This document shows, piece after piece, positions 9,070 through 27,578 of a stretch of DNA of 29,769 nucleotides (positions are counted from its first letter, which is position 1; the number at the start of each line of letters is the position of its first letter). The stretch covers positions 1 through 29,769 of the forward strand of contig DVKN01000007.1 in assembly GCA_018716005.1 (NCBI GenBank), in the 5' to 3' direction. A model generated the notes under the pieces. The model saw nothing but the letters and a program-made list of their open reading frames with translations, was not told where the DNA came from and ran no database searches. Source of the stretch: Candidatus Scatomorpha stercoravium (GTDB lineage: Bacteria > Bacillota > Clostridia > Oscillospirales > Oscillospiraceae). The position numbers were made by a program, and so were the translations under genes.

Positions 9070-9654
9070 TCAGTCCGGTTCGGGGAGGGGGGAGGCGGGG
9101 GCGCCGGATCTGTCTATGGCGGCCTCGACGCCGGAGAATTTTATGAGGAAGCCGAAGACCTCCATAATCTGAAGTATCTCGCGGTCGCCGTGGCGGCCCT
9201 TGGAGTGGCTCACTAGGATGTAGCCCATGAGCCGCTCGACGGTCTCCGCGTTCTTCTCGTCGAGGTCGGCGTATACGGGCTGCGCCCCGAAGCCGGGCGA
9301 GCGGAAGCGGAAGTAGGGGTTCGCCATGAAATACAGGAAAAGCAGGTAGGGGAACTGGCACTCCACGTAGTGGAGGACGCCGCCCTCCGGCGTTATCTTA
9401 TAGGGCTGGTAGTCGCTTATCGCCATGAGCACGCCGCGGTGCAGCTCGTGGACGCCGGCGTTTATGGATATCCGGCCGCGCCCGCTCTTTATATAAATGA
9501 GGGTTATGCTCTCGTTGTGGCGGATGGGCGTCTCCACCGCCGCCGTGCGCAGCGCGGCCTTGATAAAGGGCTGGGAGTCGGCCTCGCTGCTGAAGAAGTA
9601 GTCCATGCTGGTCATGGGCTGGGTGAAGCCTTCAATTTTCTTTTTCTTCGCCAA
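9070..9654 (-). CDS. barB: Stand-alone AraC-type cupin/ligand-binding domain protein (barB-like by synteny)
   Basis: HNESITLIYIKSGRGRISINAGVHELHRGVLMAI cupin pattern, no HTH; TTG start overlapping end of upstream AraC gene; symbol from position relative to bai operon only. Confidence 0.55.
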   Translation of the reverse strand: MAKKKKIEGFTQPMTSMDYFFSSEADSQPFIKAALRTAAVETPIRHNESITLIYIKSGRGRISINAGVHELHRGVLMAISDYQPYKITPEGGVLHYVECQFPYLLFLYFMANPYFRFRSPGFGAQPVYADLDEKNAETVERLMGYILVSHSKGRHGDREILQIMEVFGFLIKFSGVEAAIDRSGAPASPLPEPD

Positions 9655-10879
9655 GCTGGCCCCATCCTTTCTTCATGCGGAATTCGGTCGGCGTCATGCC
9701 GTTTATGTTCTTGAAGGCCCTCGAGAAGACCTTGACGGAGTTGAAGCCGACGCTCATCGAGATGTCGAGGAGGGGGAGGTCCGTGTTCAGCAGCAGGGAC
9801 TCGGAGTGCCTCACGCGGCAGAGGGAGATGATATACCTCACGCTGAGCCCGAAGAGCTCGCGGAACTTCTCGCTCAGCAGCGTCTCGGAGATGTAGAGCT
9901 CGGCGGCTATCTGCTTCTGGGTTATGGGCTGGGCGTACTTCGTCTGGATGATGTTCAGCGCGGAGATGACGGTGCGGCTGTTCACCATGCCGTAGTAGCC
10001 GCTGCCCGCGCACATGCGCATGAGCCGGTACTCGTTCGGCGAGACGCCCTTGAGCCGCTTGAACACGCGGTAGAACGAGGCCTCTGTCGAGAAGCCGGCG
10101 TAGGAGAGCAGGTAGGAGAGGGACACGTCCTCGAAGAACATGGCCCCCGCGGCGATGTTTATGCGTATCCTGTCGAGGGACTGCTGGAAGTCGCGGCCGC
10201 TTATCCGCCGCAGCTCGTAGTTGAGCTGCGCGCTCGTGCAGCCGAATTCGGCCGCCACGCCCGCCGAGGTCAGCGGATCGCGGTAGTGCTCCGCGATGTA
10301 CAGCACGACCGTCCAGCCGAGGGGGCGCGGCTCCGGCTCCTCGCCGCGCCGCGCGCGCTTTATGCAGTCGTTGATGAAGAAGACGACTATCTGCCCGAGC
10401 GTCGCGACCTTTATCATCGAGCTGCCCTGGCTGACGGAGTCGTTCTCGGCCTCGAACTCGCTGAGCAGGCGCTGGATTATCTCCTTCTTCTCCTTGCGCA
10501 TCTGCATGACGGGCCGCGACTGCATGATGGCCCGGGACGCCAGGGGCGTCAGCGTCTGCGTGACGAGGTAGGACGAGAGTGGGTAGTCGTACGCGCACAG
10601 CGAGAAGCTGAGCGTGCTGCCGAAGGCGGGCTCTATCGTATAGGTGTGGTAGGATTGCAGCCAGCACAGGCTGCCGTCGGAGAGGGGGAACTCGACCCCG
10701 TTGATGGTTATCACGCCCTCGCCCGAGGTGACGAAGAGCACCAGGCTCTCGTCCTCGGATATGGGCGGCGTGGGCTCGGTTATGGAGAAGTGCTGCAGCT
10801 TCAGGAACTTGTCGCCGCTCACAAATACGCCGCTCACGGGCTTAACCGGTATGCTCTTGGAAACAGGCCAATTCTTCAT
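9632..10879 (-). CDS. barA: AraC/XylS-family regulator with N-terminal cupin and two AraC DNA-binding domains (barA-like)
   Basis: Cupin LVLFVTSGEGVITINGVEFPL; two AraC C-terminal signatures (AGFSTEASFYRVFKRLKGVSPNEYR and VGFNSVKVFSRAFKNINGMTPTEFR); divergent from baiB; start chosen at ATG 10879 (AGGA 8 nt upstream), 10888 also possible; symbol by synteny. Confidence 0.7.
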   Translation of the reverse strand: MKNWPVSKSIPVKPVSGVFVSGDKFLKLQHFSITEPTPPISEDESLVLFVTSGEGVITINGVEFPLSDGSLCWLQSYHTYTIEPAFGSTLSFSLCAYDYPLSSYLVTQTLTPLASRAIMQSRPVMQMRKEKKEIIQRLLSEFEAENDSVSQGSSMIKVATLGQIVVFFINDCIKRARRGEEPEPRPLGWTVVLYIAEHYRDPLTSAGVAAEFGCTSAQLNYELRRISGRDFQQSLDRIRINIAAGAMFFEDVSLSYLLSYAGFSTEASFYRVFKRLKGVSPNEYRLMRMCAGSGYYGMVNSRTVISALNIIQTKYAQPITQKQIAAELYISETLLSEKFRELFGLSVRYIISLCRVRHSESLLLNTDLPLLDISMSVGFNSVKVFSRAFKNINGMTPTEFRMKKGWGQLGEEKEN

Positions 10880-10916
10880 CTGCGCCATCCTGACTGGTAA
10901 AAAATAGGGATATTTT

Positions 10917-10942
10917 GCGGGCGTCCCGCTTTTGGACGCCCG
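10917..10942. promoter_or_regulatory. GC-rich hairpin in the barA leader
   Basis: GCGGGCGTCC/GGACGCCCGC 10-bp stem, 6-nt loop. Confidence 0.55.
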
Positions 10943-11086
10943 CTGTGTTTTACGTGCTACATGAACGTGGGAACTGTTAAAGTTCGGACAAAGAAAGGCC
11001 GCGCCTGTGCGCCATGCACACAATCCGGGCGTGAAAGCCGCCCTTAATTTGCTACTTAGCATACACAAACGGGCCTTACCGATAGT

Positions 11087-11268: not shown

Positions 11269-12795
11269 ATGTCCGAAGGCGTCCGCCTTAACAAATACAA
11301 TCTCGGAGAGAGCGACTTCGTAACGCCGGGGATGCAGCTGCACTATGTGGCGCAGGCGAAGCCCGACGAGCCGGCCGTCATCCACGTGAAGGACGGCGGG
11401 ACGGAGGAGCGGATAAGCTGGAGCGAGCTCGACAGGCTGACAAGCCGCATGGCTTGGATGCTTATGGACCACGGAGTTGGGCCGAAAAGTACGGTATTAT
11501 GCACGTATCCCAACGGAATTGAGCATATTGCGGCGAATTTGGCAATATGGAAGACGGGCGCGGCCTATATGCCCACCTCGCACCGCACCTCGCCCGAGGA
11601 GCTGCTCGAGCTCCAGGAGCTCCTGTCCCCGGCCGCGGCGCTCACGGACATAGACGTCGACGAGAAGGTCTTCAAGTGCGGCATGGCCGAGCTCCGCGAG
11701 GCCTGCTCCGGCTACTCCGACGAGATGCCGCCCGACGTCCTCGCGAACCCGAACATAATAAACGCCTCCGGCGGCACGACGGGGAAGCCCAAGCTCATAA
11801 AGCAGAACATCCCCTGCGGCCACTCGGACGGCTCCATCGGCTCCTGGTTCCAGGTGAGCGGCATGGCGATGGACCAGACGCAGCTGCTCGCGGGCGCGCT
11901 CTTCCACGGCGCGCCGCACATAGCCGCGATGAACGGCCTCTTCTCCGGCGGCACGCTCGTGATACCCTCGACCTTCTGCCCGGAGGGGCTCGTGGAGTGC
12001 ATAGAGAAGTATAAGGTGCAGTTCATGCAGACCGTGCCGACGCTCATGCACAGGATAATAAAGACGCCCGGCCTCAAGAAGGAGAGCTTCGCCTCCATAG
12101 AGGCGCTCTGCCACACCGGCGGGGCCTGCTCCGAATGGCTCAAGCGCGCCTGGTTCGAGATACTCGAGCCCGAGAAGATATACGAGATGTACTCTATGAC
12201 CGAGGTCATAGGCATGTGCGCCATACGCGGCGACGAATGGCTCAAGCACCCGGGCAGCGTCGGCCTCCCCAAGTACGGCAGCCGGATATCCATCCGCGGC
12301 GCCGAAGGCGAGCCGCTCGCGCCCTACGAGGTCGGCAACATCTATATGTCGCCGCCGGCCGGCTTCTTCTACACGGAGTACATAAACGAGAAGCCGCTCG
12401 GCACGATTGAGGACAGCTTCCGCAGCGTCGGAGATATGGGCTACGTCGATACCGAGGGCTACCTCTACTTCTCCGACAGGCGCAGCGACATGATAGTCAC
12501 CGGGGGCGAGAACGTCTTCGCCGCCGAGGTTGAGAACGCCCTGCTGCGCGACGCGCACGTCCTCGACGCCGTCGTCGTCGGCATACCCGACCCGGAGTGG
12601 GGCAGGAGGCTGCACGCGGTCATTGAGACGGACGGGCTCGTCACGGCGAAGGAGCTCAAGGCCTTCCTCAAGACCTTCATGCTGCCCTACAAGATACCGA
12701 AGACCTACGAATTCGTCGACCGCATCCGCCGCAAGGACAACGGCAAGGTCGCGAGGGACGAGATACTCCGAGACAGCATCGCCAAGGGCGTCTGA
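11269..12795 (+). CDS. baiB: Bile acid-CoA ligase
   Basis: ANL superfamily; matches recalled C. scindens BaiB segments (NKYNLGESDFVTPGMQL, LANPNII..SGGTTGK.K.IKQN.PCG, PEKIYEMYSMTE, YLYFSDRRSDM). Confidence 0.93.
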   Translation: MSEGVRLNKYNLGESDFVTPGMQLHYVAQAKPDEPAVIHVKDGGTEERISWSELDRLTSRMAWMLMDHGVGPKSTVLCTYPNGIEHIAANLAIWKTGAAYMPTSHRTSPEELLELQELLSPAAALTDIDVDEKVFKCGMAELREACSGYSDEMPPDVLANPNIINASGGTTGKPKLIKQNIPCGHSDGSIGSWFQVSGMAMDQTQLLAGALFHGAPHIAAMNGLFSGGTLVIPSTFCPEGLVECIEKYKVQFMQTVPTLMHRIIKTPGLKKESFASIEALCHTGGACSEWLKRAWFEILEPEKIYEMYSMTEVIGMCAIRGDEWLKHPGSVGLPKYGSRISIRGAEGEPLAPYEVGNIYMSPPAGFFYTEYINEKPLGTIEDSFRSVGDMGYVDTEGYLYFSDRRSDMIVTGGENVFAAEVENALLRDAHVLDAVVVGIPDPEWGRRLHAVIETDGLVTAKELKAFLKTFMLPYKIPKTYEFVDRIRRKDNGKVARDEILRDSIAKGV

Positions 12796-12859: not shown

Positions 12860-14773
12860 ATGTTTGACGCACTGTTTAGCCCCATGAAGATTCGCGGCCT
12901 CGAGCTCAAGAACCGCGTTGTCCTCCCCGGCATGAACACCAAGATGGTCCGCAACAAGCACGAGATAGGCGAGGACATGATAGCCTACCACGTCGCGAAG
13001 GCCAAGGCCGGCTGCGCCCTGAACATCTTCGAGGTCGCCGCCGTCTGTCCGGAACCCCACGCCTATATGTACATGGGCCTCTACACCGACAAGGACGTCG
13101 AGGAGCTCCGCAAGCTCACCGACGCCGTCCACGCCGTCGGCGGCAAGATGGCCATCCAGCTCTGGCACGGCGGCTTCACGCCCCAGTACTTCTTCGACGA
13201 GAGCAACAAGCTCGAGACGCCCGACACCCTGAGCGTCGAGCGCCTGCAGGAGATTGAGAAGCAGTTCGGCGCCGCCGCCAAGCGCGCCGCCGACGCCGGC
13301 TTCGACGCCGTCGAGTTCCACGGCGGCCACAGCTACCTGCCCCACGAGATGCTCAGCCCCGGCACCAACCACCGCACCGACGAGTACGGCGGCAATTTCG
13401 AGAACCGCTGCCGCTTCGCCTGGAACTGCATTAAGGAAATCCGCGCGAACATCCCCGACAGCATGGCCCTCTTCATGCGCTGCGACGCCGTCGACGAGCT
13501 CATGCAGGAGAACATGACCGAGCAGGAGATAGTCGACTTCATCAACCGCTCCGCCGAGCTGGGCGTCGACGTCGTCGACCTCTCCCGCGGCAACTCCATG
13601 AGCTTCGCCACCGTCTACGAGGTCCCGCCCTACCTGCTGAAGCCCGGCTTCAACATGGACAACATCGCCAAGATAAAGGCCCAGGTCAGCATCCCCGTTA
13701 TGGGCGTCGGCCGCGTCAACACCCCCGAGCTCGCCGACAAGCTGATAGCCGAGGGCAAGGTCGACCTCGTCGGCATCGGCCGCGGCCAGATTACCGACCC
13801 CCAGTGGGTCAAGAAGGCCCAGGAGGGCCACCCCGAGCTTATCCGCAGGTGCATCGGCTGCGACCAGGGCTGCTATGACGCCGTCATCGACCCGCGCTTC
13901 AAGACCATCACCTGCACCCGCAACCCGCTCGCCTGCCTCGAGTACAAGGGCCTGCAGAAGACCGAGAGCCCGAAGAAGGTCATGATAATCGGCGGCGGCA
14001 TGGGCGGCATGATGGCGGCCGAGATACTCAAGGCCCGCGGCCACGAGCCCGCCATTTTCGAGGCCTCCGACCACCTGGGCGGCCAGTTCCTCCTCGCCGG
14101 CGTCGCTCCGCAGAAGCAGGAAATGACCGCCGCCGCCGAGTGGGAGGTCAAGGAGGTCGAGCGCATGGGCATCGAGACCCACCTCAACACCCCCGTCACC
14201 CCCGAGCTCATCGCCGAGGTCAAGCCCGACGAGGTCATAGTCGCCATCGGCTCCGACTACGTCTGCCCGGCCATCCCCGGCGCGGAGACCGCCTATCACC
14301 AGTACCAGGTCCTCACCGGCGAGGTCAAGCTCTCCGGCAACGTCTGCGTCGTCGGCTGCGGCAGCGTCGGCAGCGAGGTCGCCATGCTCCTCGCGGCCCA
14401 GGGCTGCAAGGTCACCGTTATGGAGAAGAAGGGCGTCGGCAACGACCTCACCATGCTCCGCAAGATGTTCATCAAGCCCCAGTTCAAGGGCTTCGGCATC
14501 ACCGGCATGAGCGGCACCGCCGTGCTCGGCATTGAGGACGGCAAGAAGGTACACTTCGTCGTCACCGACCGCAAGACCAAGGAGAGCACCCAGGGCAGCG
14601 CCGACTTCGACGCCGTCGTTATCTGCATGGGCATCACCGCCCGCGGCAGCGAGGACCTCCAGGCCAAGTGCGCCGAGCTGGGCGTGCCCTGCCACGTTAT
14701 CGGCGACGCCAAGCAGGCCCGCACCGCCCTCTGGGCCACCCGCGAGGCCGCCAAGGTCGCGCTGGATATGTAA
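12860..14773 (+). CDS. baiCD: 3-oxo-delta4-cholenoic acid oxidoreductase BaiCD (OYE TIM barrel + 4Fe-4S + FAD/NAD domains)
   Basis: RGLELKNRVVLPGMNTKM, PHAYMYMGLYTD, QLWHGGF.PQ.FFDE.N.LETPDTL, CIGCDQGCYDAVI match recalled BaiCD. Confidence 0.95.
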   Translation: MFDALFSPMKIRGLELKNRVVLPGMNTKMVRNKHEIGEDMIAYHVAKAKAGCALNIFEVAAVCPEPHAYMYMGLYTDKDVEELRKLTDAVHAVGGKMAIQLWHGGFTPQYFFDESNKLETPDTLSVERLQEIEKQFGAAAKRAADAGFDAVEFHGGHSYLPHEMLSPGTNHRTDEYGGNFENRCRFAWNCIKEIRANIPDSMALFMRCDAVDELMQENMTEQEIVDFINRSAELGVDVVDLSRGNSMSFATVYEVPPYLLKPGFNMDNIAKIKAQVSIPVMGVGRVNTPELADKLIAEGKVDLVGIGRGQITDPQWVKKAQEGHPELIRRCIGCDQGCYDAVIDPRFKTITCTRNPLACLEYKGLQKTESPKKVMIIGGGMGGMMAAEILKARGHEPAIFEASDHLGGQFLLAGVAPQKQEMTAAAEWEVKEVERMGIETHLNTPVTPELIAEVKPDEVIVAIGSDYVCPAIPGAETAYHQYQVLTGEVKLSGNVCVVGCGSVGSEVAMLLAAQGCKVTVMEKKGVGNDLTMLRKMFIKPQFKGFGITGMSGTAVLGIEDGKKVHFVVTDRKTKESTQGSADFDAVVICMGITARGSEDLQAKCAELGVPCHVIGDAKQARTALWATREAAKVALDM

Positions 14774-14829
14774 TCCGAGAGAGACAATAAACCCGACCGA
14801 GAGAAAAAAGATTAGGAGACAAGCTTACA

Positions 14830-16746
14830 ATGCACTTTGAAAACCTCTTTTCCCCCATCAAGCTCCGCGGCCTCGAACTCAAGAACCGCGTGCTTATGCC
14901 GGGCATGGACACCAAGTTCGCGCACGACCACATAGGCGATGAGGTCATCGCCTATCACGTCGCGCGCGTCAAGGGCGGCTGCGCGCTCAATATGTTCGAG
15001 TGCACCGCCGTGCACATCACCTCGCGCTCGAGGATGAACTTCGGCCTCTACACCGAGGAGCAGCGCGACGAGTTCAAAAAGCTCACCGACGCCGTCCACG
15101 CGGCCGGCGGCAGGATAGGCGTGCAGCTGCTGCACTGCGGCTTCGTCTACCGCCCCTTCCTCTATGAGGGCGTCCGCTGCCTGGACGTCAACAACATGAC
15201 CAAGGAGGACATAGACGAGATAGTCGCCGCCTTCGGCCGCAGCACCGCCCTCGCCGTCGAGGCCGGCTTCGACACCGTCGAATTCCACGCCGCGCACACC
15301 TACCTCGCCCACGAGTTCCTCACCGCGGCCATCAACCGCCGCACGGACGAGTACGGCGGCAGCCTCGAAAACCGCGCGCGCTTCGCCCTCGAGTGCATCC
15401 GCGAGATGCGCCGCAATATGCCCGAGGATATGCCGCTGCTCATGCGCGTCGACGTCCACGACGACTACCTCGAGAACGGCCTCACCGTCGACGACGTCGC
15501 CCAGTTCGTGAACTGGGCCGGCGAGGCCGGCGTCGACCTTGCGGATGTGTCCCGCGGCAACATCCTCTCCTTCGCCAACGTTTACGAGGTGCCGCCCATC
15601 AACCTGCCGAAGGGCCTCAACATAGACCTCATCGGCGAGCTCAAGAGCAAGGTCAAGGACGTCGCCATAGCCACCGTCGGCCGCATAGTCGAGCCCGAGA
15701 TGGCCGAGCGCGCCCTCGCCGAGGGCAAGGCCGACATGGTCGCCATCGGCCGCGCGCAGATAGCCGACCCCGACTGGTGCGTCAAGGCCATGCGCGGCGA
15801 GAGCGACAAGATAGTCAAGTGCATCGGCTGCCTCCAGGGCTGCTACGACGCCGTGACCCTGCCCGACCGCGCCCACATAACCTGCCTGCGCAACCCCATG
15901 TGCGGCCGCGAGAGCAAGCCCGTCCCCACCGCCAAGCGCAGCCTGCGCGTCATGGTCATCGGCGGCGGCATGGGCGGCATGGTGACCGCGCGCTACCTCA
16001 AGCAGTTCGGCCACGAGCCCGAGATTTACGAAATGACCAACGCCCTCGGCGGCCAGTTCGTCCTCGCCGGCAAGGCCCCGCACAAGGACGAGATTGGCGA
16101 GGCCGACCTCTGGGAGCAGCACGCCGTGCTCAGCCTGGGCATCCCCGTCCACCTGAACACCACCGTCACCCCCGAGCTCATCGCCCGCGTCAAGCCCGAC
16201 GCCGTCATCTGCGCCACCGGCGCGACCCCGCTCATCCCGCGCATCCCCGGCTACGACCTCCCGCACGTCTGCAACGCGCACGAGGTCCTCGCCGGCGATA
16301 TAACCCCGTCCGGCAACGTCGTCATCATCGGCGGCGCCTCCGTCGGCGTCGAGGTCGCCGAGTACCTCGCCGAGCGCGGCGCCCACGTGAGCGTCATCGA
16401 GATGCGCAACAAGCCCGGCATCGGCTACGGCCCGCTGCGCCGCAAGTTCGTCAAGAAGAACCTGTTCGAGTACGGCATCAACTTCATCGGCGAGGCCAAG
16501 TGCGAGGAGATACGCCCCGACAGCGTGGTCTACACGAAGCACGAGAAGACCGCCAGCATCCCCTGCGACGCCGCCGTCATCTCCGTCGGCTCCCGCAGCC
16601 GCGACACCACCGACATCGTCTCCGCCTGCAAAAAGCTCGGCATATTCTGCCGCGTGATAGGCGACGCGAAGGCCGTCGGCAACGCGCTCGACGCCACCAC
16701 CGCCGGTATGGACGCAATCTACGAGCTTCTCGCCGAGAACGCCTGA
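14830..16746 (+). CDS. Second BaiCD-like flavoenzyme (tandem paralog)
   Basis: Same architecture and strong similarity to the upstream BaiCD (RGLELKNRVLMPGMDTK, SRGNILSFANVYEVPP, CIGCLQGCYDAV) but divergent substrate loops. Confidence 0.88.
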   Translation: MHFENLFSPIKLRGLELKNRVLMPGMDTKFAHDHIGDEVIAYHVARVKGGCALNMFECTAVHITSRSRMNFGLYTEEQRDEFKKLTDAVHAAGGRIGVQLLHCGFVYRPFLYEGVRCLDVNNMTKEDIDEIVAAFGRSTALAVEAGFDTVEFHAAHTYLAHEFLTAAINRRTDEYGGSLENRARFALECIREMRRNMPEDMPLLMRVDVHDDYLENGLTVDDVAQFVNWAGEAGVDLADVSRGNILSFANVYEVPPINLPKGLNIDLIGELKSKVKDVAIATVGRIVEPEMAERALAEGKADMVAIGRAQIADPDWCVKAMRGESDKIVKCIGCLQGCYDAVTLPDRAHITCLRNPMCGRESKPVPTAKRSLRVMVIGGGMGGMVTARYLKQFGHEPEIYEMTNALGGQFVLAGKAPHKDEIGEADLWEQHAVLSLGIPVHLNTTVTPELIARVKPDAVICATGATPLIPRIPGYDLPHVCNAHEVLAGDITPSGNVVIIGGASVGVEVAEYLAERGAHVSVIEMRNKPGIGYGPLRRKFVKKNLFEYGINFIGEAKCEEIRPDSVVYTKHEKTASIPCDAAVISVGSRSRDTTDIVSACKKLGIFCRVIGDAKAVGNALDATTAGMDAIYELLAENA

Positions 16747-16770
16747 GTTCCCGGCCTGACATTGAAAAAA

Positions 16771-16795
16771 CGCCGCGCCGGGCCCCGGCGCGGCG
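16771..16795. promoter_or_regulatory. Intergenic hairpin upstream of baiE
   Basis: CGCCGCGCCGG/CCGGCGCGGCG 11-bp stem; no downstream U-tract on + strand. Confidence 0.6.
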
Positions 16796-16830
16796 CGAAA
16801 AACCGCGAACTATTGTTAGGAGGTACAGTT

Positions 16831-17352
16831 ATGACGATTGAAGAAAGGCTCGAGGCTCTCGAGAAGGAGACCCAGAAGCTCCGAGACGTTATCGAGATTA
16901 TGAACCTGAAGGGCAAGTATTTCCGCTGCCTCGACAGCAAGGACTGGGACGGCCTCGAGACTACGTTCTCCCCCAACGTCGCCACTTCCTACTCCAACGG
17001 CAAGCTCTCCTTCCACGGCCCGAAGGAGGTCACTAACTACTTCAAGCAGACCATGCCCGCCGAGATGATAAGCATGCACATGGGCCACACCCCCGAGATT
17101 ACCGTCAACGACGACGGCACCGCCGTCGGCCGCTGGTACCTCCAGGACAACCTCATCTTCACCGAGGGCAGCCCCTACGCCGGCGTGGGCATCCAGGGCG
17201 GCGCCTTCTACACCGACAAGTACGAGAAGATAGACGGCCAGTGGCTCATAGTCGAGACCGGCTACGTCCGCATCTACGAGGAGAGCTTCAAGCGCCCCCA
17301 CACCCGCATGACCGCCAATATGCACGCCAAGAAGGAAGTAAAGGCCGAATAA
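16831..17352 (+). CDS. baiE: Bile acid 7alpha-dehydratase
   Basis: MTIEERLEALEKE..., LKGKYFRCLD, ISMHMGHTPEI, GGAFYTDKYEKIDGQW; residues equivalent to BaiE Y30, D35, H83, D106, R146 present; start moved to ATG 16831 (AGGAGG). Confidence 0.96.
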   Translation: MTIEERLEALEKETQKLRDVIEIMNLKGKYFRCLDSKDWDGLETTFSPNVATSYSNGKLSFHGPKEVTNYFKQTMPAEMISMHMGHTPEITVNDDGTAVGRWYLQDNLIFTEGSPYAGVGIQGGAFYTDKYEKIDGQWLIVETGYVRIYEESFKRPHTRMTANMHAKKEVKAE

Positions 17353-17400: not shown

Positions 17401-18153
17401 ATGGAACTCGTCAAAGGCAAAGTAGCTTTCATAACCGGCGGCACCCGCGGCATCGGCTTCGCGGCCGCTAAGAAGTTCATCGAGAACGGCGCCCACGTCG
17501 CCATCGCCGGCCACTGCCAGGAGACCGTCGACGCCGCCCTCGCCAAGCTCAAGGAGCTCTACCCGGACGTCGAGGTCCTCGGCCTGCATCCCACCCTGAC
17601 CAGCCGCCAGGAGATGCTCGACGCCGTCGGCCAGGTCGTCGCCAAGTGGGGCCGCATCGACGTCATGATTAACAACGCCGGCGTGACCCACAGCACCGTG
17701 TTCAGCAAGATTCAGGAGGGCGAGTTCGAGCATATGTTCGACGTCAACGTCGAGGGCGTGTACAACGGCGCCTGGGCCGCCTACCAGTACATGAAGGCCA
17801 ACAACGCCGGCGTCATCATCAACACCGCCTCCGTCACCGGCATCTTCGGCTCCACCTCCGGCGTCGGCTACCCCGCCAGCAAGGCCGCGGTCGTCGGCTT
17901 CACCCATGAGCTCGGCCGCGAGCTGGTCCGCCGCAACATCCGCGTCGTCGCCGTCGCCCCCGGCGTTGTCAACACCGACATGACCAACGCCAACATGGAC
18001 CCCGTCATCAAGGAGCAGTACCTCAAGTACCTGCCCATGAAGCGTATGCTCGAGCCCGAGGAGATTGCCAACGTCTATCTCTTCCTCGCCAGCGACCTCG
18101 CCAGCGGCATCACCGCCACCACCGTCAGCGTTGACGGCGCCTACAGGCCGTAA
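17401..18153 (+). CDS. baiA: 3alpha-hydroxy bile acid-CoA dehydrogenase (SDR)
   Basis: ITGGTRGIGFAAAK, GVGYPASK and C-terminus LPMKRMLEPEEIANVYLFLASDLASGITATTVSVDGAYRP matching recalled BaiA. Confidence 0.96.
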   Translation: MELVKGKVAFITGGTRGIGFAAAKKFIENGAHVAIAGHCQETVDAALAKLKELYPDVEVLGLHPTLTSRQEMLDAVGQVVAKWGRIDVMINNAGVTHSTVFSKIQEGEFEHMFDVNVEGVYNGAWAAYQYMKANNAGVIINTASVTGIFGSTSGVGYPASKAAVVGFTHELGRELVRRNIRVVAVAPGVVNTDMTNANMDPVIKEQYLKYLPMKRMLEPEEIANVYLFLASDLASGITATTVSVDGAYRP

Positions 18154-18156: not shown

Positions 18157-18918
18157 ATGCTGCTGAAAGACAAGGTCGCCATAATAACCGGCGCGAACTC
18201 GGGCATAGGCCATGAGTGCGCCCTGACATTTATAGCCGAGGGGGCCATAGTCGCCGGCGTCGACATCAACACCGGCAGCATGGCCGGCCTCGCCGAAGCC
18301 GCCGAGAAATACGGCACCCGCTTCGAGGCCTTCCAGTGCGACGTGCGCAGCGAGGAGTCCGTCATGGGCGTAGTCGACGCCGTGGCCGAGCGCTTCGGCG
18401 GACGCATCGACATCATGCTCAACGTCGCCGGCATCACCGTCGACTCCCCCATCACGCGCACGGACAAGAGCGTCTTCGACCGCGTCATAGACGTCAACGC
18501 CGGCGGCACCTTCAACTTCTGCAAGCACGTGGCGCGGTACATGAAGCGCCAGCGCTCCGGCTCCATCGTGAACACGAGCTCCGTCACCGCCCAGTTCGGC
18601 ACCCAGATGGGCACGCCGTACAGCGCGAGCAAGGCCGCCATACTCGGCATCACCCGCTCGCTCGCCATGGAGCTCGCGCCCTGGAACGTCCGCGTGAACG
18701 CGGTCGCCCCCGGCGTCGTGAACACGGAGATGGTCTCCAACCTCAACGAGCAGGAGCGCGAGAGCTGCGCGAGGAGCATCCCCCTCGCCAGGCTCGGCGA
18801 GCCCCGCGACATCGCGAACGCCATGCTCTTCCTCGCGAGCGACATGGCCTCGTACATAACCGGCAGCACGCTGAACGTCGACGGCGGATACCGCCCCGCC
18901 TTCGTGCCGCTGCACTGA
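18157..18918 (+). CDS. Additional BaiA-like SDR oxidoreductase (candidate hydroxysteroid dehydrogenase)
   Basis: TGANSGIG, acidic D in GVDIN (NAD-type), YSASK, VAPGVVNTEM and VDGGYRP resembling BaiA. Confidence 0.85.
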   Translation: MLLKDKVAIITGANSGIGHECALTFIAEGAIVAGVDINTGSMAGLAEAAEKYGTRFEAFQCDVRSEESVMGVVDAVAERFGGRIDIMLNVAGITVDSPITRTDKSVFDRVIDVNAGGTFNFCKHVARYMKRQRSGSIVNTSSVTAQFGTQMGTPYSASKAAILGITRSLAMELAPWNVRVNAVAPGVVNTEMVSNLNEQERESCARSIPLARLGEPRDIANAMLFLASDMASYITGSTLNVDGGYRPAFVPLH

Positions 18919-18955: not shown

Positions 18956-20257
18956 ATGGCTGGTCTTAAAGATTTCCCCAATAACGGCGCCCTCCACGGG
19001 CTAAAGATACTCGACAGCGGCTCCAACATAGCCGGCCCCTTCGCGGGCGGCCTGCTGGCTGAGGCCGGCGCCACCGTCATCCACTTCGAGGCCCCCAAGA
19101 AGCCCGACAACCAGCGCGGCTGGTACGGCTATCCCCAGAACCACCGCAACCAGCTCTCCATGGTCGCCGACATCAAGACCGAAGAGGGCCGCGAGATATT
19201 CCTGAAGCTCATCAAGTGGGCCGACATCTGGGTCGAGTCCTCCAAGGGCGGCCAGTACGACCGCCTGGGCCTGAGCGACGAGTTTATCTGGACCATCAAC
19301 CCCAAGCTCGCCATCTGCCACGTCTCCGGCTACGGCCAGAGCGGCGTGCCCGAGTACGTCACCAAGGCGAGCTACGACGCCGCGGGCCAGGCCTTCTCCG
19401 GCTATATGTCCCTCAACGGCATCGACTACTCCCTCAAGACCAACCCCTACCTGAGCGACTACGTCTGCGGCCTCACCACCTGCTGGAGCATGCTCGCCTG
19501 CTACGTCAGCACCCAGCTCACCGGCAAGGGCGAGAGCGTCGACGTCGCCCAGTACGAGGCCCTGGCCCGCATCACCGACGGCCGCTTCATGCAGTACCTC
19601 ACCGACGGCGTCAAGATGCCGCGCACCGGCAACAAGGACGCCCAGGCCGCGAGCTTCAGCTTCTACACCTGCAAGGACGGCGGCGTCATCTTCATCGGCA
19701 TGACCGGCGCCGAGGTCTGCAAGCGCGGCTACCCGATTATCGGCCTGCCCGTGCCCGGCACCGGCGACCCCGACTTCCCCGAGGGCTTCACCGGCTGGAT
19801 GATTAACTCCCCCGTCGGCCAGAGGATAGAGCGCGCCGTCGAGAACTACGTCTCCCAGCACACCGTCGACGAGGTCGAGGCCGAGATGCTCGCCCATCAG
19901 ATCCCCTGCCAGAAGGTCTACGAGCTCGAGGACTGCGCCAAGGATCCCCAGTGGCAGGCCCGCGAGACCCTCACCGAGTGGGACGACCCCATGTTCGGCC
20001 ACGTCAAGGGCCTCGGCCTCCTGAGCAAGTTCAAGAACAACCCGAGCCAGATCTGGCGCGGCGCCCCGCTCTTCGGCATGGACAACCGCGACATCATGCG
20101 CGACCTCGGCTACACCGACGAGCAGATTCAGGACTACTACGACCGCGGCATCGTCGGCGAGTTCGACCTTGAGACCACTATCAAGCGCTACCGCCTGCGC
20201 GAGGTCATCCCCCATATGCGCCCCGACTGGAAGGGCCTCCCCGAAGACAAGAAATAA
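18956..20257 (+). CDS. baiF: Bile acid CoA-transferase (family III)
   Basis: MAGLKDFP..GAL.GLKILDSGSNIAGP, KKPDNQRGWYGYPQNHRNQLSMVADIK, GLPVPGTGDPDFPEGFTGW match recalled BaiF. Confidence 0.96.
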   Translation: MAGLKDFPNNGALHGLKILDSGSNIAGPFAGGLLAEAGATVIHFEAPKKPDNQRGWYGYPQNHRNQLSMVADIKTEEGREIFLKLIKWADIWVESSKGGQYDRLGLSDEFIWTINPKLAICHVSGYGQSGVPEYVTKASYDAAGQAFSGYMSLNGIDYSLKTNPYLSDYVCGLTTCWSMLACYVSTQLTGKGESVDVAQYEALARITDGRFMQYLTDGVKMPRTGNKDAQAASFSFYTCKDGGVIFIGMTGAEVCKRGYPIIGLPVPGTGDPDFPEGFTGWMINSPVGQRIERAVENYVSQHTVDEVEAEMLAHQIPCQKVYELEDCAKDPQWQARETLTEWDDPMFGHVKGLGLLSKFKNNPSQIWRGAPLFGMDNRDIMRDLGYTDEQIQDYYDRGIVGEFDLETTIKRYRLREVIPHMRPDWKGLPEDKK

Positions 20258-20310: not shown

Positions 20311-21108
20311 ATGAAAAAACTGGAGAATAAGGTGGCGCTCGTCACCGCGAGCACGCGCGGCATCGGCTATGCCATAGCGGAGACCTTCGCCCGCGAGGGC
20401 GCGACGGTCTATATGGCCTGCCGCAACCTTGAAGCCGCCAACGAAAAGGCCGCGGCCCTCAACGCGGAGGGCTGCTGCGTGAAGACCGTGTACTTCGAGG
20501 CTCACGACAAGCAGAGCATGAAGGACATGATAAAGACCGCCGTCGAAAACGAGGGCCGGCTGGACATACTCGTCAACAACTTCGGCGGCACGAGCCCGAA
20601 GGACGACCTGCCGTTCCAGTACACGAAATACGACAAGTTCGCGAACTATATTGACATGCACCTCTCCAGCGTGTTCATAGCCTCCCAGGAGGCCATACGC
20701 CTCGCGATGGAGAAGCAGAAGAGCGGCTGCATAATCAATATCGGCTCCGTCGCCGGCATCACGCCCGATACGAGCCAGGTCGCCTACGGCACCAGCAAGG
20801 CCGCCATTATCCACCTGAGCAAGATGATAGCCGTCCACGCCGCGAAGGACAACATCACCTGCAACGTCGTGTGCCCCGGCATGACCGCGACCGAGGCCGT
20901 CATGAACAACCTGACGCCCGAGTTCATGCAGTTCTTCCTCAAGCACACGCCCATCGCGCGCATGGCCACGCCCCAGGAGATGGCCGACGCCGCGCTCTAC
21001 TTCGCCACCGCGCCCTTCACCACGGGCCAGGTGCTGGCCGTCCACGGCGGCTTCGGCGTGCCGAGCCCCGTATACGGCGACATGCTGCTCATGACCAACA
21101 AGCGCTAA
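20311..21108 (+). CDS. hdhA: 7alpha-hydroxysteroid dehydrogenase, NADP(H)-type SDR
   Basis: LVTASTRGIG, MACRN (basic residue, NADP-type), LVNNFG, PDTSQVAYGTSKAAI, PGMTATEAV.NNLT..F..FFLKHTP match recalled clostridial 7alpha-HSDH. Confidence 0.85.
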   Translation: MKKLENKVALVTASTRGIGYAIAETFAREGATVYMACRNLEAANEKAAALNAEGCCVKTVYFEAHDKQSMKDMIKTAVENEGRLDILVNNFGGTSPKDDLPFQYTKYDKFANYIDMHLSSVFIASQEAIRLAMEKQKSGCIINIGSVAGITPDTSQVAYGTSKAAIIHLSKMIAVHAAKDNITCNVVCPGMTATEAVMNNLTPEFMQFFLKHTPIARMATPQEMADAALYFATAPFTTGQVLAVHGGFGVPSPVYGDMLLMTNKR

Positions 21109-21119: not shown

Positions 21120-21629
21120 ATGGAACGTCAACTCCAGGAACTCATAGAGAAGGAAGCCATCCGCGAGCAGATATACACCTACTGCCGCGCGCTTGACCGC
21201 ATAGACAACGAGCTGGGCTACACTGTCTTCGCCGAGGACGCCAAGGTCGACTACGGCCCCACCTATAAGGGCGACGGCCGCGGCTTCATCGACATGATGC
21301 TCAATATGCACCGCGGGATGGTCGCCACCCACCACATGATGACGAACATCCTGATAAAGTTCAATGACGACATGACCCGCGCCGCGAGCGAGACCTATAT
21401 GTACGCCGCCTGCAAGTACAAGAACAAGGCCGGCGAGGCCAGCTTCACCGTCGAGGCCCGCTGCCGCGACATCGACAAGTGGGAGAAGCGCGACGGCAAG
21501 TGGGTCATCACCGAGCGCGTCGTCGCCGGCGACAACACCTTTATGCTCACGCCGAGGTACTTCGACGACTACAACAACGGCCGCGACACCGTCAAGGACC
21601 CGTCCTACACCTTCTTCGAGGAAGTGTGA
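21120..21629 (+). CDS. SnoaL/NTF2-like protein (dehydratase/isomerase fold), additional to BaiE and BaiI
   Basis: LIEKEAIREQIYTYCRALD...THHMMTN...DKWEKRDGKWVITER SnoaL_4 pattern; start moved to ATG 21120 (AAAGGAG). Confidence 0.85.
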   Translation: MERQLQELIEKEAIREQIYTYCRALDRIDNELGYTVFAEDAKVDYGPTYKGDGRGFIDMMLNMHRGMVATHHMMTNILIKFNDDMTRAASETYMYAACKYKNKAGEASFTVEARCRDIDKWEKRDGKWVITERVVAGDNTFMLTPRYFDDYNNGRDTVKDPSYTFFEEV

Positions 21630-21657: not shown

Positions 21658-23469
21658 GTGAAGCTGAATCCAGGTACATATGAGGGCTGCGCGCGCGGAT
21701 ACGGCGGCAGGCTCTATGTGAGCGCCGAGGTCTCCGAGGGGAGCATCCTCAGCGTAAAGATAACCAAGCACCGCGAATACCGCGGCATAGCCTGGGGGCT
21801 GAACACCACGCCCATCGAGAGCTTCCCCGGGCTCATAGTCAAATACCAGAGCCTCAACATTCCCCCGGTAACGGGCGCGGACGTCACCTGCGAGGCCATC
21901 CTCGGCGCGGTTTCCGCCGCCCTCGCGGCCGCGGGCGCGTCCGAGGAGGACATAGCCGCGCTCCGCTCCGCCCCCGGCCCCGTGCCGCCCGAGTATGAGG
22001 ACGAGGTCCGCCATGTCGACGTCGTGGTCTGCGGCGCGGGCGCGGGCGGCCTCGCCGCCGCCATCGAGGTCAAGGAGGCCGGCGGCGACGTCGTGATTGT
22101 GGAGAAGCAGGGCGTGACCGGCGGCGCGACCGCGCGCTCCGGCGGCAAGCTCCTCGGCGCGGGCACCGAATGGCAGAAGCGCCAGGGCATCTACGACAGC
22201 GAGAACATGGTCTACGACTACCTCATGGAGGTGGGCGACCGGCAGGGCAAATTCATGGACGCCGGGAAGACCCGCTATCTCGTCGACAACCTGAACTCCA
22301 CCATAGAATGGCTCAGCTCCATCGAGGCCACCGTGAAGGGCGATGAGGAAGAGATACTGGCCATGCCGTATCAGGAGCTCTCCCGCCCGCGCAGGAAGGA
22401 CGGCGCGCTCAAGACGAGCTACCACGTCCTCGACGTCGAGGCCATACACAAGAGCCTCCAGCCCTGGAGGGTGCACAATTCCCCCGGAGGCGGCGGCCAG
22501 ACGAACGGCCAGGGCGGCGAGATTTCCACCCCGCTCACGCTCTACTATGAGAACGACATCGGCGGCGAGATAATCTACAACACCGCCATGCAGGAGCTGC
22601 TCACCGACGAATACGGCGCGGTGACCGGCGTCGTATGCCGCCGCGCGAACGGCGCGAAGCTGACGCTCTACGCCCGCCGCGGCGTGATAATCGCCACCGG
22701 CGGCTACGCGCGGAACAAGGAGATGTGCTCCCGCTACCCCGTGGCGCACTACTTCAGCAACGTCCCGTGCGGGAACGTCGGCGAGGGCCTCACGGCCGCC
22801 GAGAGGATAGGCGCGCTCAACTACGAGCACCCGGCCGTGCAGGTGGTCTACACCTCGCTGAGCTGCGGCGTCGGCATAAACGACGAGAGCGGCCTCATAG
22901 TGAACAGCCGCGGCGAGCGCGTCGTAAACGAGTGGACCTATCAGTACACGGTCTCGGACGCCATCGCACGCTCCGGCAGCAGCTGCGGCTGGTACATAAC
23001 CAGCGGCGACGAGCCCTATCCGACCGTGCGCTACGGCTTCGCCCAGGCTGTCGAGGGCAAGAGCCGCGACTACGCCGCCGACAGCATAGAGGAGCTGGCC
23101 GTGAAGATAAAGGCCGACCCCGCCGTGCTGAAGGCCACATACGAGCGCTACTGCGAGCTCGTGGAAAAGGGCGCCGACGAGGACTTCGGGAAGCCCGCGA
23201 AGTTCCTCCACCCCATAAAGGGGCCGAAGTTCGCCGCGCTCAGGCTCCACCCCTGCGTGACCGTCACCTTCGGCGGGCTGGACACCGACCTCTCGGCGCG
23301 CGTAATACGCCCCGACGGGAGCGTCATACCCCGCCTGTACGCGGCCGGCGAGGTCGCCGGTACGGGAATGTACGGCACGCAGTACCCCACCTGCGGCACC
23401 TCCATAGGCAGCGCGCTCTTCTACGGCCGCATAGCCGGACGCGCCGTCATGGATAAGAAGATGCTTTGA
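21658..23469 (+). CDS. FMN-bind + FAD_binding_2 (flavocytochrome/fumarate-reductase-like) oxidoreductase, BaiJ/BaiP-like
   Basis: N-terminal PGTYEG.ARGYGG.L.V...V FMN-bind domain; DVVVCGAGAGGLAAAIE, EKQGVTGGATARSGG, TFGGL, IPRLYAAGEVAG; GTG start after GAGGAGG; no signal peptide. Confidence 0.8.
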   Translation: MKLNPGTYEGCARGYGGRLYVSAEVSEGSILSVKITKHREYRGIAWGLNTTPIESFPGLIVKYQSLNIPPVTGADVTCEAILGAVSAALAAAGASEEDIAALRSAPGPVPPEYEDEVRHVDVVVCGAGAGGLAAAIEVKEAGGDVVIVEKQGVTGGATARSGGKLLGAGTEWQKRQGIYDSENMVYDYLMEVGDRQGKFMDAGKTRYLVDNLNSTIEWLSSIEATVKGDEEEILAMPYQELSRPRRKDGALKTSYHVLDVEAIHKSLQPWRVHNSPGGGGQTNGQGGEISTPLTLYYENDIGGEIIYNTAMQELLTDEYGAVTGVVCRRANGAKLTLYARRGVIIATGGYARNKEMCSRYPVAHYFSNVPCGNVGEGLTAAERIGALNYEHPAVQVVYTSLSCGVGINDESGLIVNSRGERVVNEWTYQYTVSDAIARSGSSCGWYITSGDEPYPTVRYGFAQAVEGKSRDYAADSIEELAVKIKADPAVLKATYERYCELVEKGADEDFGKPAKFLHPIKGPKFAALRLHPCVTVTFGGLDTDLSARVIRPDGSVIPRLYAAGEVAGTGMYGTQYPTCGTSIGSALFYGRIAGRAVMDKKML

Positions 23470-23542: not shown

Positions 23543-25528
23543 ATGGACATGAAAGACTCTAAGCTGTTTTCCCCGCTCAAGGTGGGCTCCCTGACGCTGC
23601 GCAACCGCGTCGGCATGGCCCCCATGAGCATGGACTACGAGGCGAAGGACGGCACCGTGCCCAAGCGCCTCGCGGACATCTTCGTCCGCCGCGCCGAGGG
23701 CGGCACCGGCTATGTCATGATAGACGCCGTCACGATTGACCGCAAGTACCAGTACATAGGCAAGACCACCTGCCTCGACTCCGACGACCTGGTCCCGCAG
23801 TTCCGCGAGTTCGCCCAGCGCGTCGCCGCCACCGGCAGCACCCTCGTGCCCCAGATTATCCACCCCGGCCCGGAGAGCATCTGCGGCTTCCGCGGCATCC
23901 CGCCCCTGGGCCCGAGCGTCAACACCAACGCCAACTGCCACGTCTCCCGCGCGATGACCATCGACGAGATACACGAGGTCGTCAAGCAGTTCGGCCAGGC
24001 CGCCAGGAGGGTGGAGGAGGCCGGCTGCGGCGCCATCGGCCTGCACTGCGCCCACGCCTACATGATGCCCGGCGCCTTCCTGAGCCCGCTGCGCAACAAG
24101 CGCATGGACGAGTACGGCGGCTGCATCGACAACCGCGCCCGCTTCATCCTCGAGGTCATAGCCGAGGTACGCGCGAACGTCAGCCCCGACTTCCCGATTT
24201 TCCTGCGCGTCTCCGGCAGCGAGCGCGTCGAGGGCGGCAACAGCCTCGAGGAGATGCTCTACCTCGCGCCCAAGTTTGAGGCGGCCGGCGTCAACCTCAT
24301 CGAGGTCTCCGGCGGCACCCAGTACGAGGGCCTCGAGAACATTATCCCCAGCCACGGCAAGCACATAGGCATGAACGTCTATGAGGCCAGCGAGATAAAG
24401 AAGGTCGTCAACATCCCCGTCTACGCCGTCGGTAAGATAAACGACATCCGCTACGCCGCCGACATAGTCGAGCGCGGCCTCGTGGACGGCGTGAGCATGG
24501 GCCGCCCCCTGCTCGCCGACCCCGACCTCTGCAACAAGGCCTACGAGAACCGCTTCGACGACATCACCCCCTGCGGAAGCTGCGGCGGCAGCTGCATCAC
24601 CCGCACCGCGGAGCGTCCCCAGTGCCGCTGCCATATCAACCCGCGCGTCGGCCATGAGTACGACTATCCCGACAACCCGACCGACAAGCCGAAGAAGACC
24701 CTCATCATCGGCGCGGGCCCCGGCGGCATGTACGCCGCCGTCACCGCCGCCGAGCGCGGCCACGACGTCACCGTCTGGGAGGCCGACGACAAGATAGGCG
24801 GCCAGCTCAACCTCGCCGTCACCAGCCCCGGCAAGCAGGAGATGACGAAGTGGCTCGTCCACCTCAACTACCGCGCGAAGAAGGCCGGCGTCAAGTTCGA
24901 GTTCGGCAGGGAGGCCACCGTCGAGGCCGTCCGCGAGTTCAATCCCGACGCGGTTATCGTCGCCACCGGCGCGAAGCCGCTCATCCCGCCCATCAAGGGC
25001 ACGCAGGAGTATCCCGTCCGCACCGCTCACGACTACCTCAGGGGCAAGTTCGTCATCCCGAAGGGCCGCGTGTGCATCCTCGGCGGCGGCGAAGTCGCCT
25101 GCGAGACGGCCGAGACGATACTCGCCAACGCCCGTCCGACCGCGTTCACCCGCGGCTTCGACGCGAGCATCGGCGACGTCGAGGTCACCATCATAGAGAT
25201 GCTCCCCCAGATCCTCACCGGCGTCTGCATGCCCAACAGGGCGCCCCTTATGCGCACGCTGAAGGCCAACGGGGTTGACATCAACGTAAATACCAAGGTA
25301 CTCGAGGTCACCGACCACGACGTAAAGGTCCAGAGGAAGGACGGCACCGAGGAGTGGCTCCGCGGCTTCGACTACATCATCTTCGGCCTCGGCGCCCGCA
25401 ATTACGATCCCCTCAGCGAAGAACTCAAGGCCTTTGTCCCCGAGGTGCACGTTATCGGCGACGCCGTCAAGGCCCGCCAGAGCAGCGACGCCATGTGGGA
25501 AGGCTTCGAGGTCGCATATAACCTGTAA
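23543..25528 (+). CDS. baiH: BaiH NADH:flavin oxidoreductase (OYE + 4Fe-4S)
   Basis: MDMK.S.LFSPL..GSLTL.NRVGMAPMSMDYEA.DGTVPKRLAD, GGTQYEGLE, EMTKWLVHLNYRAKKAGVKFEF match recalled BaiH. Confidence 0.96.
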   Translation: MDMKDSKLFSPLKVGSLTLRNRVGMAPMSMDYEAKDGTVPKRLADIFVRRAEGGTGYVMIDAVTIDRKYQYIGKTTCLDSDDLVPQFREFAQRVAATGSTLVPQIIHPGPESICGFRGIPPLGPSVNTNANCHVSRAMTIDEIHEVVKQFGQAARRVEEAGCGAIGLHCAHAYMMPGAFLSPLRNKRMDEYGGCIDNRARFILEVIAEVRANVSPDFPIFLRVSGSERVEGGNSLEEMLYLAPKFEAAGVNLIEVSGGTQYEGLENIIPSHGKHIGMNVYEASEIKKVVNIPVYAVGKINDIRYAADIVERGLVDGVSMGRPLLADPDLCNKAYENRFDDITPCGSCGGSCITRTAERPQCRCHINPRVGHEYDYPDNPTDKPKKTLIIGAGPGGMYAAVTAAERGHDVTVWEADDKIGGQLNLAVTSPGKQEMTKWLVHLNYRAKKAGVKFEFGREATVEAVREFNPDAVIVATGAKPLIPPIKGTQEYPVRTAHDYLRGKFVIPKGRVCILGGGEVACETAETILANARPTAFTRGFDASIGDVEVTIIEMLPQILTGVCMPNRAPLMRTLKANGVDINVNTKVLEVTDHDVKVQRKDGTEEWLRGFDYIIFGLGARNYDPLSEELKAFVPEVHVIGDAVKARQSSDAMWEGFEVAYNL

Positions 25529-27051: not shown

Positions 27052-27071
27052 TATTGAGAAAGGAGCAACCC

Positions 27072-27578
27072 TTGACTATTCCTGCCGATAAGGAAATCAC
27101 CGAACTCGTACGCGAGATACTCACCGAGGCCGGCAAGGGCTATACCCCCGAGCAGCTAGCCGAAATCCCCAACATCCTCGCCACCAAGTACAAGTACTGG
27201 TGGTGCATAGACATGCAGATGTGGGACCTGCTCCCCGAGGTCTATACCGAGCCCTTCGAGGCCTATTCCAACGGCCGCCTGGTGCCCAACAAGTGCATTC
27301 AGGACCAGGTCGACCGCGCCGCCGTCGTGTGCAACGACTCGATGGTGCCGACCCACATGGGCCACAACCCCATCGTGCAGTTCACCGGCGAGCGCTCCTG
27401 CCGCCTGCTCACCCGCCTGAACGACTACCACACCTATAAGGACGACGGCTCCACCTACGAGGGCTGGGCCCTTTACGTGGACGACATGGTGAAGTGCGAC
27501 GACGGCGTCTGGCGCATAAAGACCCTGCGCCTCACCTACCGCAAGATACTGGGCAAACTTCGCACCCTGGGAGTTTAA
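27072..27578 (+). CDS. baiI: SnoaL/NTF2-like protein, probable BaiI
   Basis: KYKYWWCID...PTHMGHNP...LYVDD...DGVWRI; BaiE-like fold; located beside baiG/baiH; TTG start 27072 after AAAGGAG; name from fold plus synteny. Confidence 0.65.
   Translation: MTIPADKEITELVREILTEAGKGYTPEQLAEIPNILATKYKYWWCIDMQMWDLLPEVYTEPFEAYSNGRLVPNKCIQDQVDRAAVVCNDSMVPTHMGHNPIVQFTGERSCRLLTRLNDYHTYKDDGSTYEGWALYVDDMVKCDDGVWRIKTLRLTYRKILGKLRTLGV

Follow-up and report, generated by a model that had tools for sequence, protein, structure and literature searches.

The window considered here, a 29,769-nucleotide stretch of contig DVKN01000007.1, comes from a metagenome-assembled genome (MAG) of Candidatus Scatomorpha stercoravium (64% GC, 78% complete, with 291 contigs totalling 1.97 Mb) and carries a bai operon. 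The host lineage is formed by uncultured Oscillospiraceae near 'Candidatus Scatomorpha', UMGS893 and HGM13002, and the stretch recurs, nearly identical, in chicken-gut metagenomes of at least six studies. The open reading frame (ORF) at positions 14830..16746 of the forward strand, named BaiCD2 here (protein P0001), encodes by its translation an Fe-S flavoenzyme of 638 residues. Its upstream neighbour is the canonical baiCD gene of the same operon (12860..14773, forward strand; protein P0002), which scores 846.8 bits with the NCBIfam BaiCD profile NF041087 (cut-off 825), is 64–66% identical to BaiCD of Proteocatella sphenisci, Dorea sp. D27 and Extibacter muris, and falls inside the canonical BaiCD clade. 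An earlier note, made from the sequence of the window, had called BaiCD2 a tandem paralog. The gene does stand directly after baiCD here, but the term is misleading, since baiE lies between the two genes in two other lineages.

The baiCD stop (14773) and the BaiCD2 start are separated by 56 bp, and a Shine-Dalgarno sequence AGGAG (14814..14818, forward strand) can be read 11 nucleotides upstream of the BaiCD2 ATG. The downstream gene, baiE (16831..17352, forward strand), encodes a SnoaL_4 protein of 173 residues and starts with the ATG at 16831 behind AGGAGG, and not with the TTG at 16762 chosen by the mechanical ORF call. The 84-bp spacer between BaiCD2 and baiE contains a 12-bp GC-rich hairpin (16770..16796), preceded by an A-run and lacking a U-tract on the forward strand; it is terminator-like for the reverse strand only, and no forward-strand terminator was found in the two spacers flanking BaiCD2. 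The GC content at third codon positions, 0.94, reflects the same composition as in the neighbouring genes. Judging by the spacers, the ribosome-binding site of its own and the lack of a forward-strand terminator, BaiCD2 is probably co-transcribed with baiB, baiCD and baiE.

The Pfam domains of BaiCD2 are Oxidored_FMN (residues 6–324) and Pyr_redox_2 (373–594). BaiCD has the same architecture, an Oxidored_FMN barrel, an Fe-S linker and Pyr_redox_2 in about 640 residues, and the location of BaiCD2 in an operon with baiB, baiE, a baiA-type short-chain dehydrogenase/reductase (SDR) gene, baiF and baiH fits BaiCD as well. The two proteins of the operon are 47% identical over 632 residues (BLASTP, E = 0), and the scaffold segments that the earlier note had listed as retained (RGLELKNR, SRGN..SFA.VYEVPP, CIGCxQGCYDAV) are all found in BaiCD2. 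The AlphaFold2 model (pLDDT 92.5, pTM 0.89) matches FadH (1PS9) and 2-naphthoyl-CoA reductase (6QKG) over the whole chain, with TM 0.91 and E from 3e-57 to 6e-54 (Foldseek).

Residue positions were assigned via sequence alignment to YqjM (1z41) and FadH (1ps9) together with the secondary structure of the model. His153, His156 and Tyr158 (15286..15303, forward strand) correspond to H164, H167 and Y169 of YqjM in the HMMER alignment, that is, to the carbonyl-binding His pair and the proton-donor Tyr of the old yellow enzyme (OYE) type; the His-x-x-His-x-Tyr motif is present in BaiCD2 and throughout the four groups of aligned proteins. The cysteines of the [4Fe-4S] site, C331, C334, C338 and C352 (15820..15885, forward strand), are invariant in both alignments (A1 and A2) and align to the cluster region of FadH. 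The FAD-binding GxGxxG motif (G378, G380, G383; 15961..15978, forward strand) is again found in every aligned protein of the four groups, and an acidic residue typical of NADH sites is retained. FadH and 2-naphthoyl-CoA reductase have the whole-chain fold, the Fe-S site and, presumably, a substrate of CoA-thioester type in common with BaiCD2, at 27–28% identity, whereas FadH has Glu and Tyr in place of the OYE-type His-x-x-His-x-Tyr. YqjM (1Z41), TOYE (3KRZ) and the Thermus ene-reductase TsER (3HF3) align with the BaiCD2 barrel residue for residue, but they are single-domain proteins without its Fe-S and FAD domains.

Phylogenetic trees were constructed for 139 and for 48 proteins under a site-heterogeneous model. 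In both trees BaiCD2 groups with its close orthologs and with a 55%-identical subclade (L001, L081, P0017, P0019), while a third, long-branched member, P0031 from locus L083, joins at the base of the clade with support 86. The BaiCD2 clade is sister to all BaiCDs from bai operons, with joint support 99, and the non-bai BaiCD-like proteins remain outside. The bai-operon BaiCDs are represented by the canonical clade (E. muris, Dorea sp. D27, P. sphenisci) and by an abundant Oscillospiraceae type with divergent baiH. The earlier note had proposed a phylogeny including BaiH: this 3-oxo-Δ4,6 reductase belongs to the same superfamily and operon, but forms a separate deep clade, and BaiCD2, at 29–30% identity to the BaiH of the window, is not a part of it (bai-operon BaiHs being taken as at least 70% identical to each other). 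By sequence, BaiCD2 is a member of the FadH-like Fe-S flavoenzyme superfamily and, within it, of the BaiCD lineage. BaiCD of the Clostridium scindens, Peptacetobacter hiranonis and E. muris type is its nearest relative (47–50% identity) and resembles it in the three domains, the His-His-Tyr triad, the four cysteines, the FAD motif and the operon. However, BaiCD2 lies outside the clade of every bai-operon BaiCD compared, the canonical one included, lacks the QLWHGG motif and has rebuilt β2, β3 and β5 loops.

The duplication is old, as the earlier note had supposed. Placing BaiCD2 and the BaiCD of its own genome in one clade, as a lineage-specific duplication would require, costs 195 log-likelihood units and is rejected by the approximately unbiased (AU) test with p-AU 8e-71, the constraint group having been named after the tree was seen. 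No asymmetric acceleration after the duplication is seen, as the path lengths from the common node to BaiCD2 and to BaiCD are similar.

Intact orthologs, 85–92% identical, are present in five related Oscillospiraceae species-level genomes, and in the six genomes of this group BaiCD2 is directly downstream of baiCD. In the L001/L081 and L083 lineages the gene order is baiCD-baiE-BaiCD2-SDR. Each of the BaiCD2 subclades pairs with a different branch of canonical BaiCDs, which suggests an old origin of the two-gene state within canonical-type operons, with later loss in most of them. In the loci compared, BaiCD2 always accompanies a canonical BaiCD and never replaces it; in all lineages seen, it was confined to bai operons, with baiCD and baiE as neighbours. 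The clade is rare, being present in six of the 77 loci kept from a collection of species-representative genomes (211 relatives confirmed), and a search of 5.8 billion proteins yielded only a handful of clusters more than 52% identical to BaiCD2. Among the second SDR, SnoaL2 and BaiJ-like genes examined, none strictly co-occurs with BaiCD2. In the closest relatives, L008 and L009, there is no baiE at the position after BaiCD2.

Additional BaiCD-like genes occur in several other loci. An Oscillospiraceae MAG from water-buffalo caecum (L011:40-6452) has three tandem BaiCD-like flavoenzyme genes, 40%, 49% and 51% identical to BaiCD2, which branch outside both BaiCD and BaiCD2. The L002:2829-14925 and L083:2921-14523 clusters share a divergent baiH, an AraC regulator, a small ORF, baiCD-baiE followed by a second paralog, and three SDR genes, while baiB and baiF are absent from the vicinity. 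In L083 the paralog has QLLHAG, without Trp, and groups with BaiCD2; the L002 paralog retains QLWHGG and the canonical loops and branches beside canonical BaiCD, which may reflect gene conversion.

P0015, 65% identical to BaiCD2, was considered as an intermediate member of the clade and left out of the clade analysis, being a hybrid of BaiCD (residues 1 to ~375) and BaiCD2 (~376–639). At L082:8157-10076 the former part is about 90% BaiCD-like and the latter about 90% BaiCD2-like, with the junction at the shared FAD motif VM(V/I)IGGGMGGM; the operon has a single copy, which is not followed by baiE. The contig, covered 3.5x, occurs in two samples, and the hybrid arose either by unequal crossing-over of the two paralogs or as a chimera of the assembly.

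Three changes in the barrel had been quoted in the earlier note, PGMNTK to PGMDTK, PHAYMYMGL to SRSRMNFGL and WHGGFTPQYFFDESNKLETPD to LHCGFVYRPFLYEGVRCLD. All are present, and in the AlphaFold2 model the changed segments directly follow β1 (21–24), β2 (53–60) and β3 (96–101) at the active-site face. The first of them is seen in the genus of the window and is not clade-wide. At the same time, the strongest clade-wide change, the loss of Trp from the QLW motif, had not been singled out. The Q-[LIV]-W-H-G-G motif after β3 is replaced by QLLHCG in BaiCD2, with Leu101-His102-Cys103 at 15130..15138 (forward strand) and Leu101 at the position of OYE1 Trp116 and YqjM Ala104. Trp at position 101 and Gly at position 103 occur in all 78 other BaiCD-like proteins from the collected loci and are replaced only in the BaiCD2 clade, where other subclades carry QLFHSG, QLLHSG or QLLHAG (Trp to Leu or Phe, Gly to Cys, Ser or Ala). 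Database matches carrying the motif keep the Trp in all cases except the BaiCD2 clade and P0031, and a later tree placed P0031, lacking this Trp, at the base of the BaiCD2 clade.

The β2 loop, residues 62–73 (HITSRSRMNFGL; 15013..15048, forward strand), corresponds to the Ile69 loop of YqjM and is polar and basic, in place of the aromatic CPxPHAYMYMGL of BaiCD. The β3 loop, residues 104–124 (GFVYRPFLYEGVRCLD...; 15139..15201, forward strand), is rebuilt and conserved within the BaiCD2 clade. The two canonical BaiCD clades provide a same-function control for this divergence. Between them, the β2 loop is 61% identical, as compared to 34–47% between BaiCD2 and the canonical proteins and 36% between BaiCD2 subclades; the respective values are 72%, 23–25% and 49% for the β3 loop and 48%, 18–21% and 68% for the β5 loop. 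The β3 loop of non-bai relatives is 22% identical to the canonical one, about as low as that of BaiCD2. For all catalytic-face loops taken together, the identity between canonical clades is 66%, above the rest of the barrel (59%), whereas between BaiCD2 and the canonical proteins it is 48–50%, below the rest of the barrel (53–54%). Thus the divergence is concentrated on the active-site loops when set against the control, in agreement with what the earlier note had proposed. By this comparison it exceeds ordinary loop drift, and a change in what is bound would be expected to leave such a pattern.

Two further replacements are restricted to the genus of the window. Asp27 (14908..14910, forward strand), at the position of YqjM Cys26 and FadH His26, is Asn in most BaiCDs; the equivalent residue contacts FMN O4/N5 in OYE enzymes. 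In the NAD(P)H-site motif GGASVG (16330..16347, forward strand) the central Gly is replaced by Ala503, while 77 of the 78 other BaiCD-like proteins have Gly at this position. In the register of the alignment, Asp27 corresponds to YqjM C26 (TsER C25), the 62–73 loop to the I69 loop of YqjM, and Leu101 to YqjM A104; from this register and the TsER sequence, the latter two would be TsER I67 and A102. The three TsER hot-spot positions and OYE1 W116 are classic sites at which changes alter the substrate scope and invert stereoselectivity. The fold matches of BaiCD2 include the engineered TsER variants C25D/I67T (5NUX) and C25D/I67T/A102H (5OGT). We treat this parallel as a lead on where specificity may reside, and not as evidence of the outcome.

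BaiCD2 is intact and evolves under purifying selection, as baiCD and baiH do. There are no stops or frameshifts in the six orthologs, and pairwise dN/dS is 0.08–0.16, compared with 0.08–0.23 for baiCD and 0.07–0.14 for baiH. Contigs assembled from RNA libraries in three chicken-gut or gut metatranscriptome studies fall inside BaiCD2 with zero to two mismatches.

The NF041087 score of BaiCD2 is 805.7 bits, that of the L008 ortholog 816.2, both below the cut-off, while members of the L001/L081 subclade exceed it (829–835). This cut-off was tried as a criterion of BaiCD membership and rejected, since non-bai proteins rank above genuine BaiCDs: those of Hungatella hathewayi and Anaerosporobacter mobilis have 1071 and 1153 bits, respectively, genuine bai-operon BaiCDs have 847–907, and the abundant Oscillospiraceae/Sporofaciens bai-operon type falls below the cut-off with 776–797 bits (tested on L070:9962-11926, L013:10001-11935, L018:9992-11923 and L054:9989-11920). 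Hence automatic BaiCD names are unreliable in both directions, and gene counts will be wrong in surveys that equate all BaiCD-like hits with BaiCD.

The remaining genes of the locus are those of a bai operon. The first operon gene, baiB (11269..12795), encodes a bile acid-CoA ligase (NF038344, 760.8 bits, cut-off 650). Downstream of baiE, profile matches identify two SDRs (17401-18153 and 18157-18918), a baiF-like CoA transferase (18956-20257) and an SDR resembling 7alpha-hydroxysteroid dehydrogenase (20311-21108). These are followed by a second SnoaL_4 protein (21120-21629), a BaiJ/BaiP-like flavoprotein with FMN_bind+FAD_binding_2 (21658-23469), baiH (23543-25528), whose product is 80–85% identical to known BaiH, an MFS transporter (25592-27013), a BaiI-like SnoaL_4 protein (27054-27578) and a fourth Fe-S flavoenzyme (27494-29560), all on the forward strand. 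An AraC-type regulator (9632..11068, reverse strand; HTH_18 and HTH_AraC matches) is divergent from baiB, and the same arrangement is observed in L001, L081 and L082. Compared with L004, L008, L009 and L081, the BaiJ/BaiP-like gene is present only in the window, where it was apparently inserted recently, between baiH and the SnoaL gene. In the MAG as a whole, full-length Fe-S flavoenzymes of the FadH/BaiCD type number at least nine, with several contigs involved (C180, C136, C86, C257, C4); the window has four. A BaiCD-type match at E ≤ 1e-150 was found in none of five sampled genomes of the GTDB genus of the window and in 12 of 400 genomes sampled from the family; this patchy distribution of the bai cluster is in keeping with horizontal transfer, as hinted at in the literature.

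BaiCD acts on CoA esters: it oxidises 3-oxo-7alpha-hydroxy CoA esters and later reduces the 7-deoxy-3-oxo-Δ4 CoA ester (PMC10936602). For BaiCD2, we infer the chemistry, a bile-acid substrate and a division of labour with BaiCD. We lean, with some reserve, towards BaiCD2 being a specialised second 3-oxo-Δ4 bile-acid-CoA oxidoreductase, shifted in specificity, direction or stereochemistry. The likeliest target would be the C4=C5 bond of a 3-oxo bile-acid CoA, because BaiCD is the nearest relative, the gene is found in bai operons only, and baiH is present separately. The protein would be a working ene-reductase/dehydrogenase dependent on NAD(P)H, FAD, [4Fe-4S] and FMN, in which, by homology with FadH and OYE, electrons would pass from NAD(P)H to FAD, then to the [4Fe-4S] cluster and to FMN. 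His153 and His156 would hold the 3-oxo group of the substrate, with a hydride transferred between FMN N5 and C5 and a proton between Tyr158 and C4. BaiCD2 might thus interconvert 3-oxo and 3-oxo-Δ4 bile-acid CoA intermediates as BaiCD does, in a different pocket. We read this as sub-functionalisation: BaiCD2 could take over a subset of the two jobs that elsewhere fall to one BaiCD, oxidation of the 7-hydroxylated or reduction of the 7-deoxy substrate, or it could accept a bile acid with a different hydroxylation or A/B-ring configuration. Its substrate is probably a bile-acid intermediate poorly converted by BaiCD. The earlier note had suggested neofunctionalisation, with 7beta-OH, 5alpha or 12-variant substrates or a split of the oxidative and reductive steps, and these suggestions keep the rank of hypotheses.

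A number of points weigh against this reading. BaiCD2 is missing from the majority of bai operons, among them those of every bacterium in which 7-dehydroxylation has been proven by experiment; these work without it, so the gene is not essential for the pathway. The joint support for the three BaiCD2 subclades is moderate (SH-aLRT 84–92), and P0031 has a long branch. The Asn27Asp and Gly503Ala replacements are confined to one genus and cannot define the function of the clade, and the differing loops could tune CoA binding or oligomerisation instead of steroid specificity. Finally, the RNA evidence for transcription is weak, because assembled contigs can derive from DNA carry-over, and it reports presence only, with no level, strand or transcript boundaries.

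Among other explanations, BaiCD2 could have turned to another regiochemistry or substrate class, such as Δ6 as in BaiH, Δ1, or a co-regulated non-bile-acid steroid, sterol or enoate. The clearly altered pocket agrees with this, as do the repeated substrate shifts within the Fe-S flavoenzyme superfamily (BaiH, IsmB, OsrB) and the number of such enzymes in this genome. Nevertheless, we consider it rather unlikely: BaiCD2 is far closer to BaiCD than to BaiH (47–50% against 30%), while IsmB is only 29% identical to BaiCD; the operon already has a bona fide baiH; and in all lineages seen BaiCD2 has kept to bai operons and the vicinity of baiCD and baiE. Somewhat less probable is a redundant isozyme, kept for dosage or robustness, that does not differ from BaiCD in reactions, substrates or 5beta stereochemistry. 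The domains, the catalytic triad and the operon are indeed the same, and members of the L001 subclade still pass the cut-off of the BaiCD profile. On the other hand, the split is older than the divergence of all bai-operon BaiCD clades, and at least three lineages maintain both copies under purifying selection. Long retention of a truly redundant copy would be unusual, and it is specifically in BaiCD2 that Trp101 and Gly103, found in all 78 other relatives compared, and the loops conserved in canonical proteins are replaced. A decaying or non-catalytic copy, either a relic being lost or a structural partner with no activity of its own, is very improbable. It would be in line with the Gly to Ala replacement that the genus of the window has in its NAD(P)H GxGxxG motif, the BaiCD::BaiCD2 hybrid in one contig and the apparent loss of BaiCD2 from most bai operons, but the six open frames with constraint equal to that of baiCD and baiH, the full set of catalytic and Fe-S residues, the confidently predicted fold and the presence of the sequence in RNA libraries all speak against it.

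A more specific proposal is that BaiCD2 is a stereocomplementary or direction-specialised partner of BaiCD, which forms or accepts A/B-trans (5alpha, allo) 3-oxo CoA esters or serves the reductive arm only. Here, the loss of Trp, together with Asp27 in the genus of the window, would flip or re-seat the steroid. We regard this as doubtful, and the BaiJ/BaiP-like gene in the same operon weakens the need for a 5alpha role of BaiCD2. BaiP and BaiJ are 5alpha-reductases of 7-dehydroxylating bacteria and, like BaiCD, take 3-oxo-Δ4 bile-acid intermediates as substrates (PMC9645264, PMC10936602). The identity of BaiCD2 itself as an enzyme of this type was considered and ruled out: the fold families are unrelated, and the FMN_bind+FAD_binding_2 architecture is absent from BaiCD2, which gives no FAD_binding_2-type signal, all its significant Pfam domains being Oxidored_FMN or of the Pyr_redox type. 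If the stereocomplementary proposal were true, there would be a BaiP/BaiJ-independent route to allo-bile acids, via an Fe-S flavoenzyme, in Oscillospiraceae of the bird and human gut.

In the literature searched, no paper on a second BaiCD-lineage gene in bai operons was found; searches for a baiCD paralog turned up nothing beyond gene lists, with baiCD_1 and baiCD_2 named in a Peptacetobacter preprint, and unrelated Fe-S flavoenzymes (IsmB, OsrB). The 7-dehydroxylation pathway shapes the pool of secondary bile acids and, through it, host signalling, resistance to Clostridioides difficile, and diseases of the liver and colon. Present models of the pathway assign two opposite jobs to one BaiCD and leave open what controls the 5alpha/5beta outcome and the substrate range outside a few cultured Lachnospiraceae. 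The presence of BaiCD2 in three bai-operon lineages of uncultured Oscillospiraceae suggests that, in at least some bacteria, the pathway employs two enzymes of this kind. BaiCD2 may also be seen as a natural experiment on the pocket residues that set specificity in an oxygen-sensitive, structurally unsolved family.

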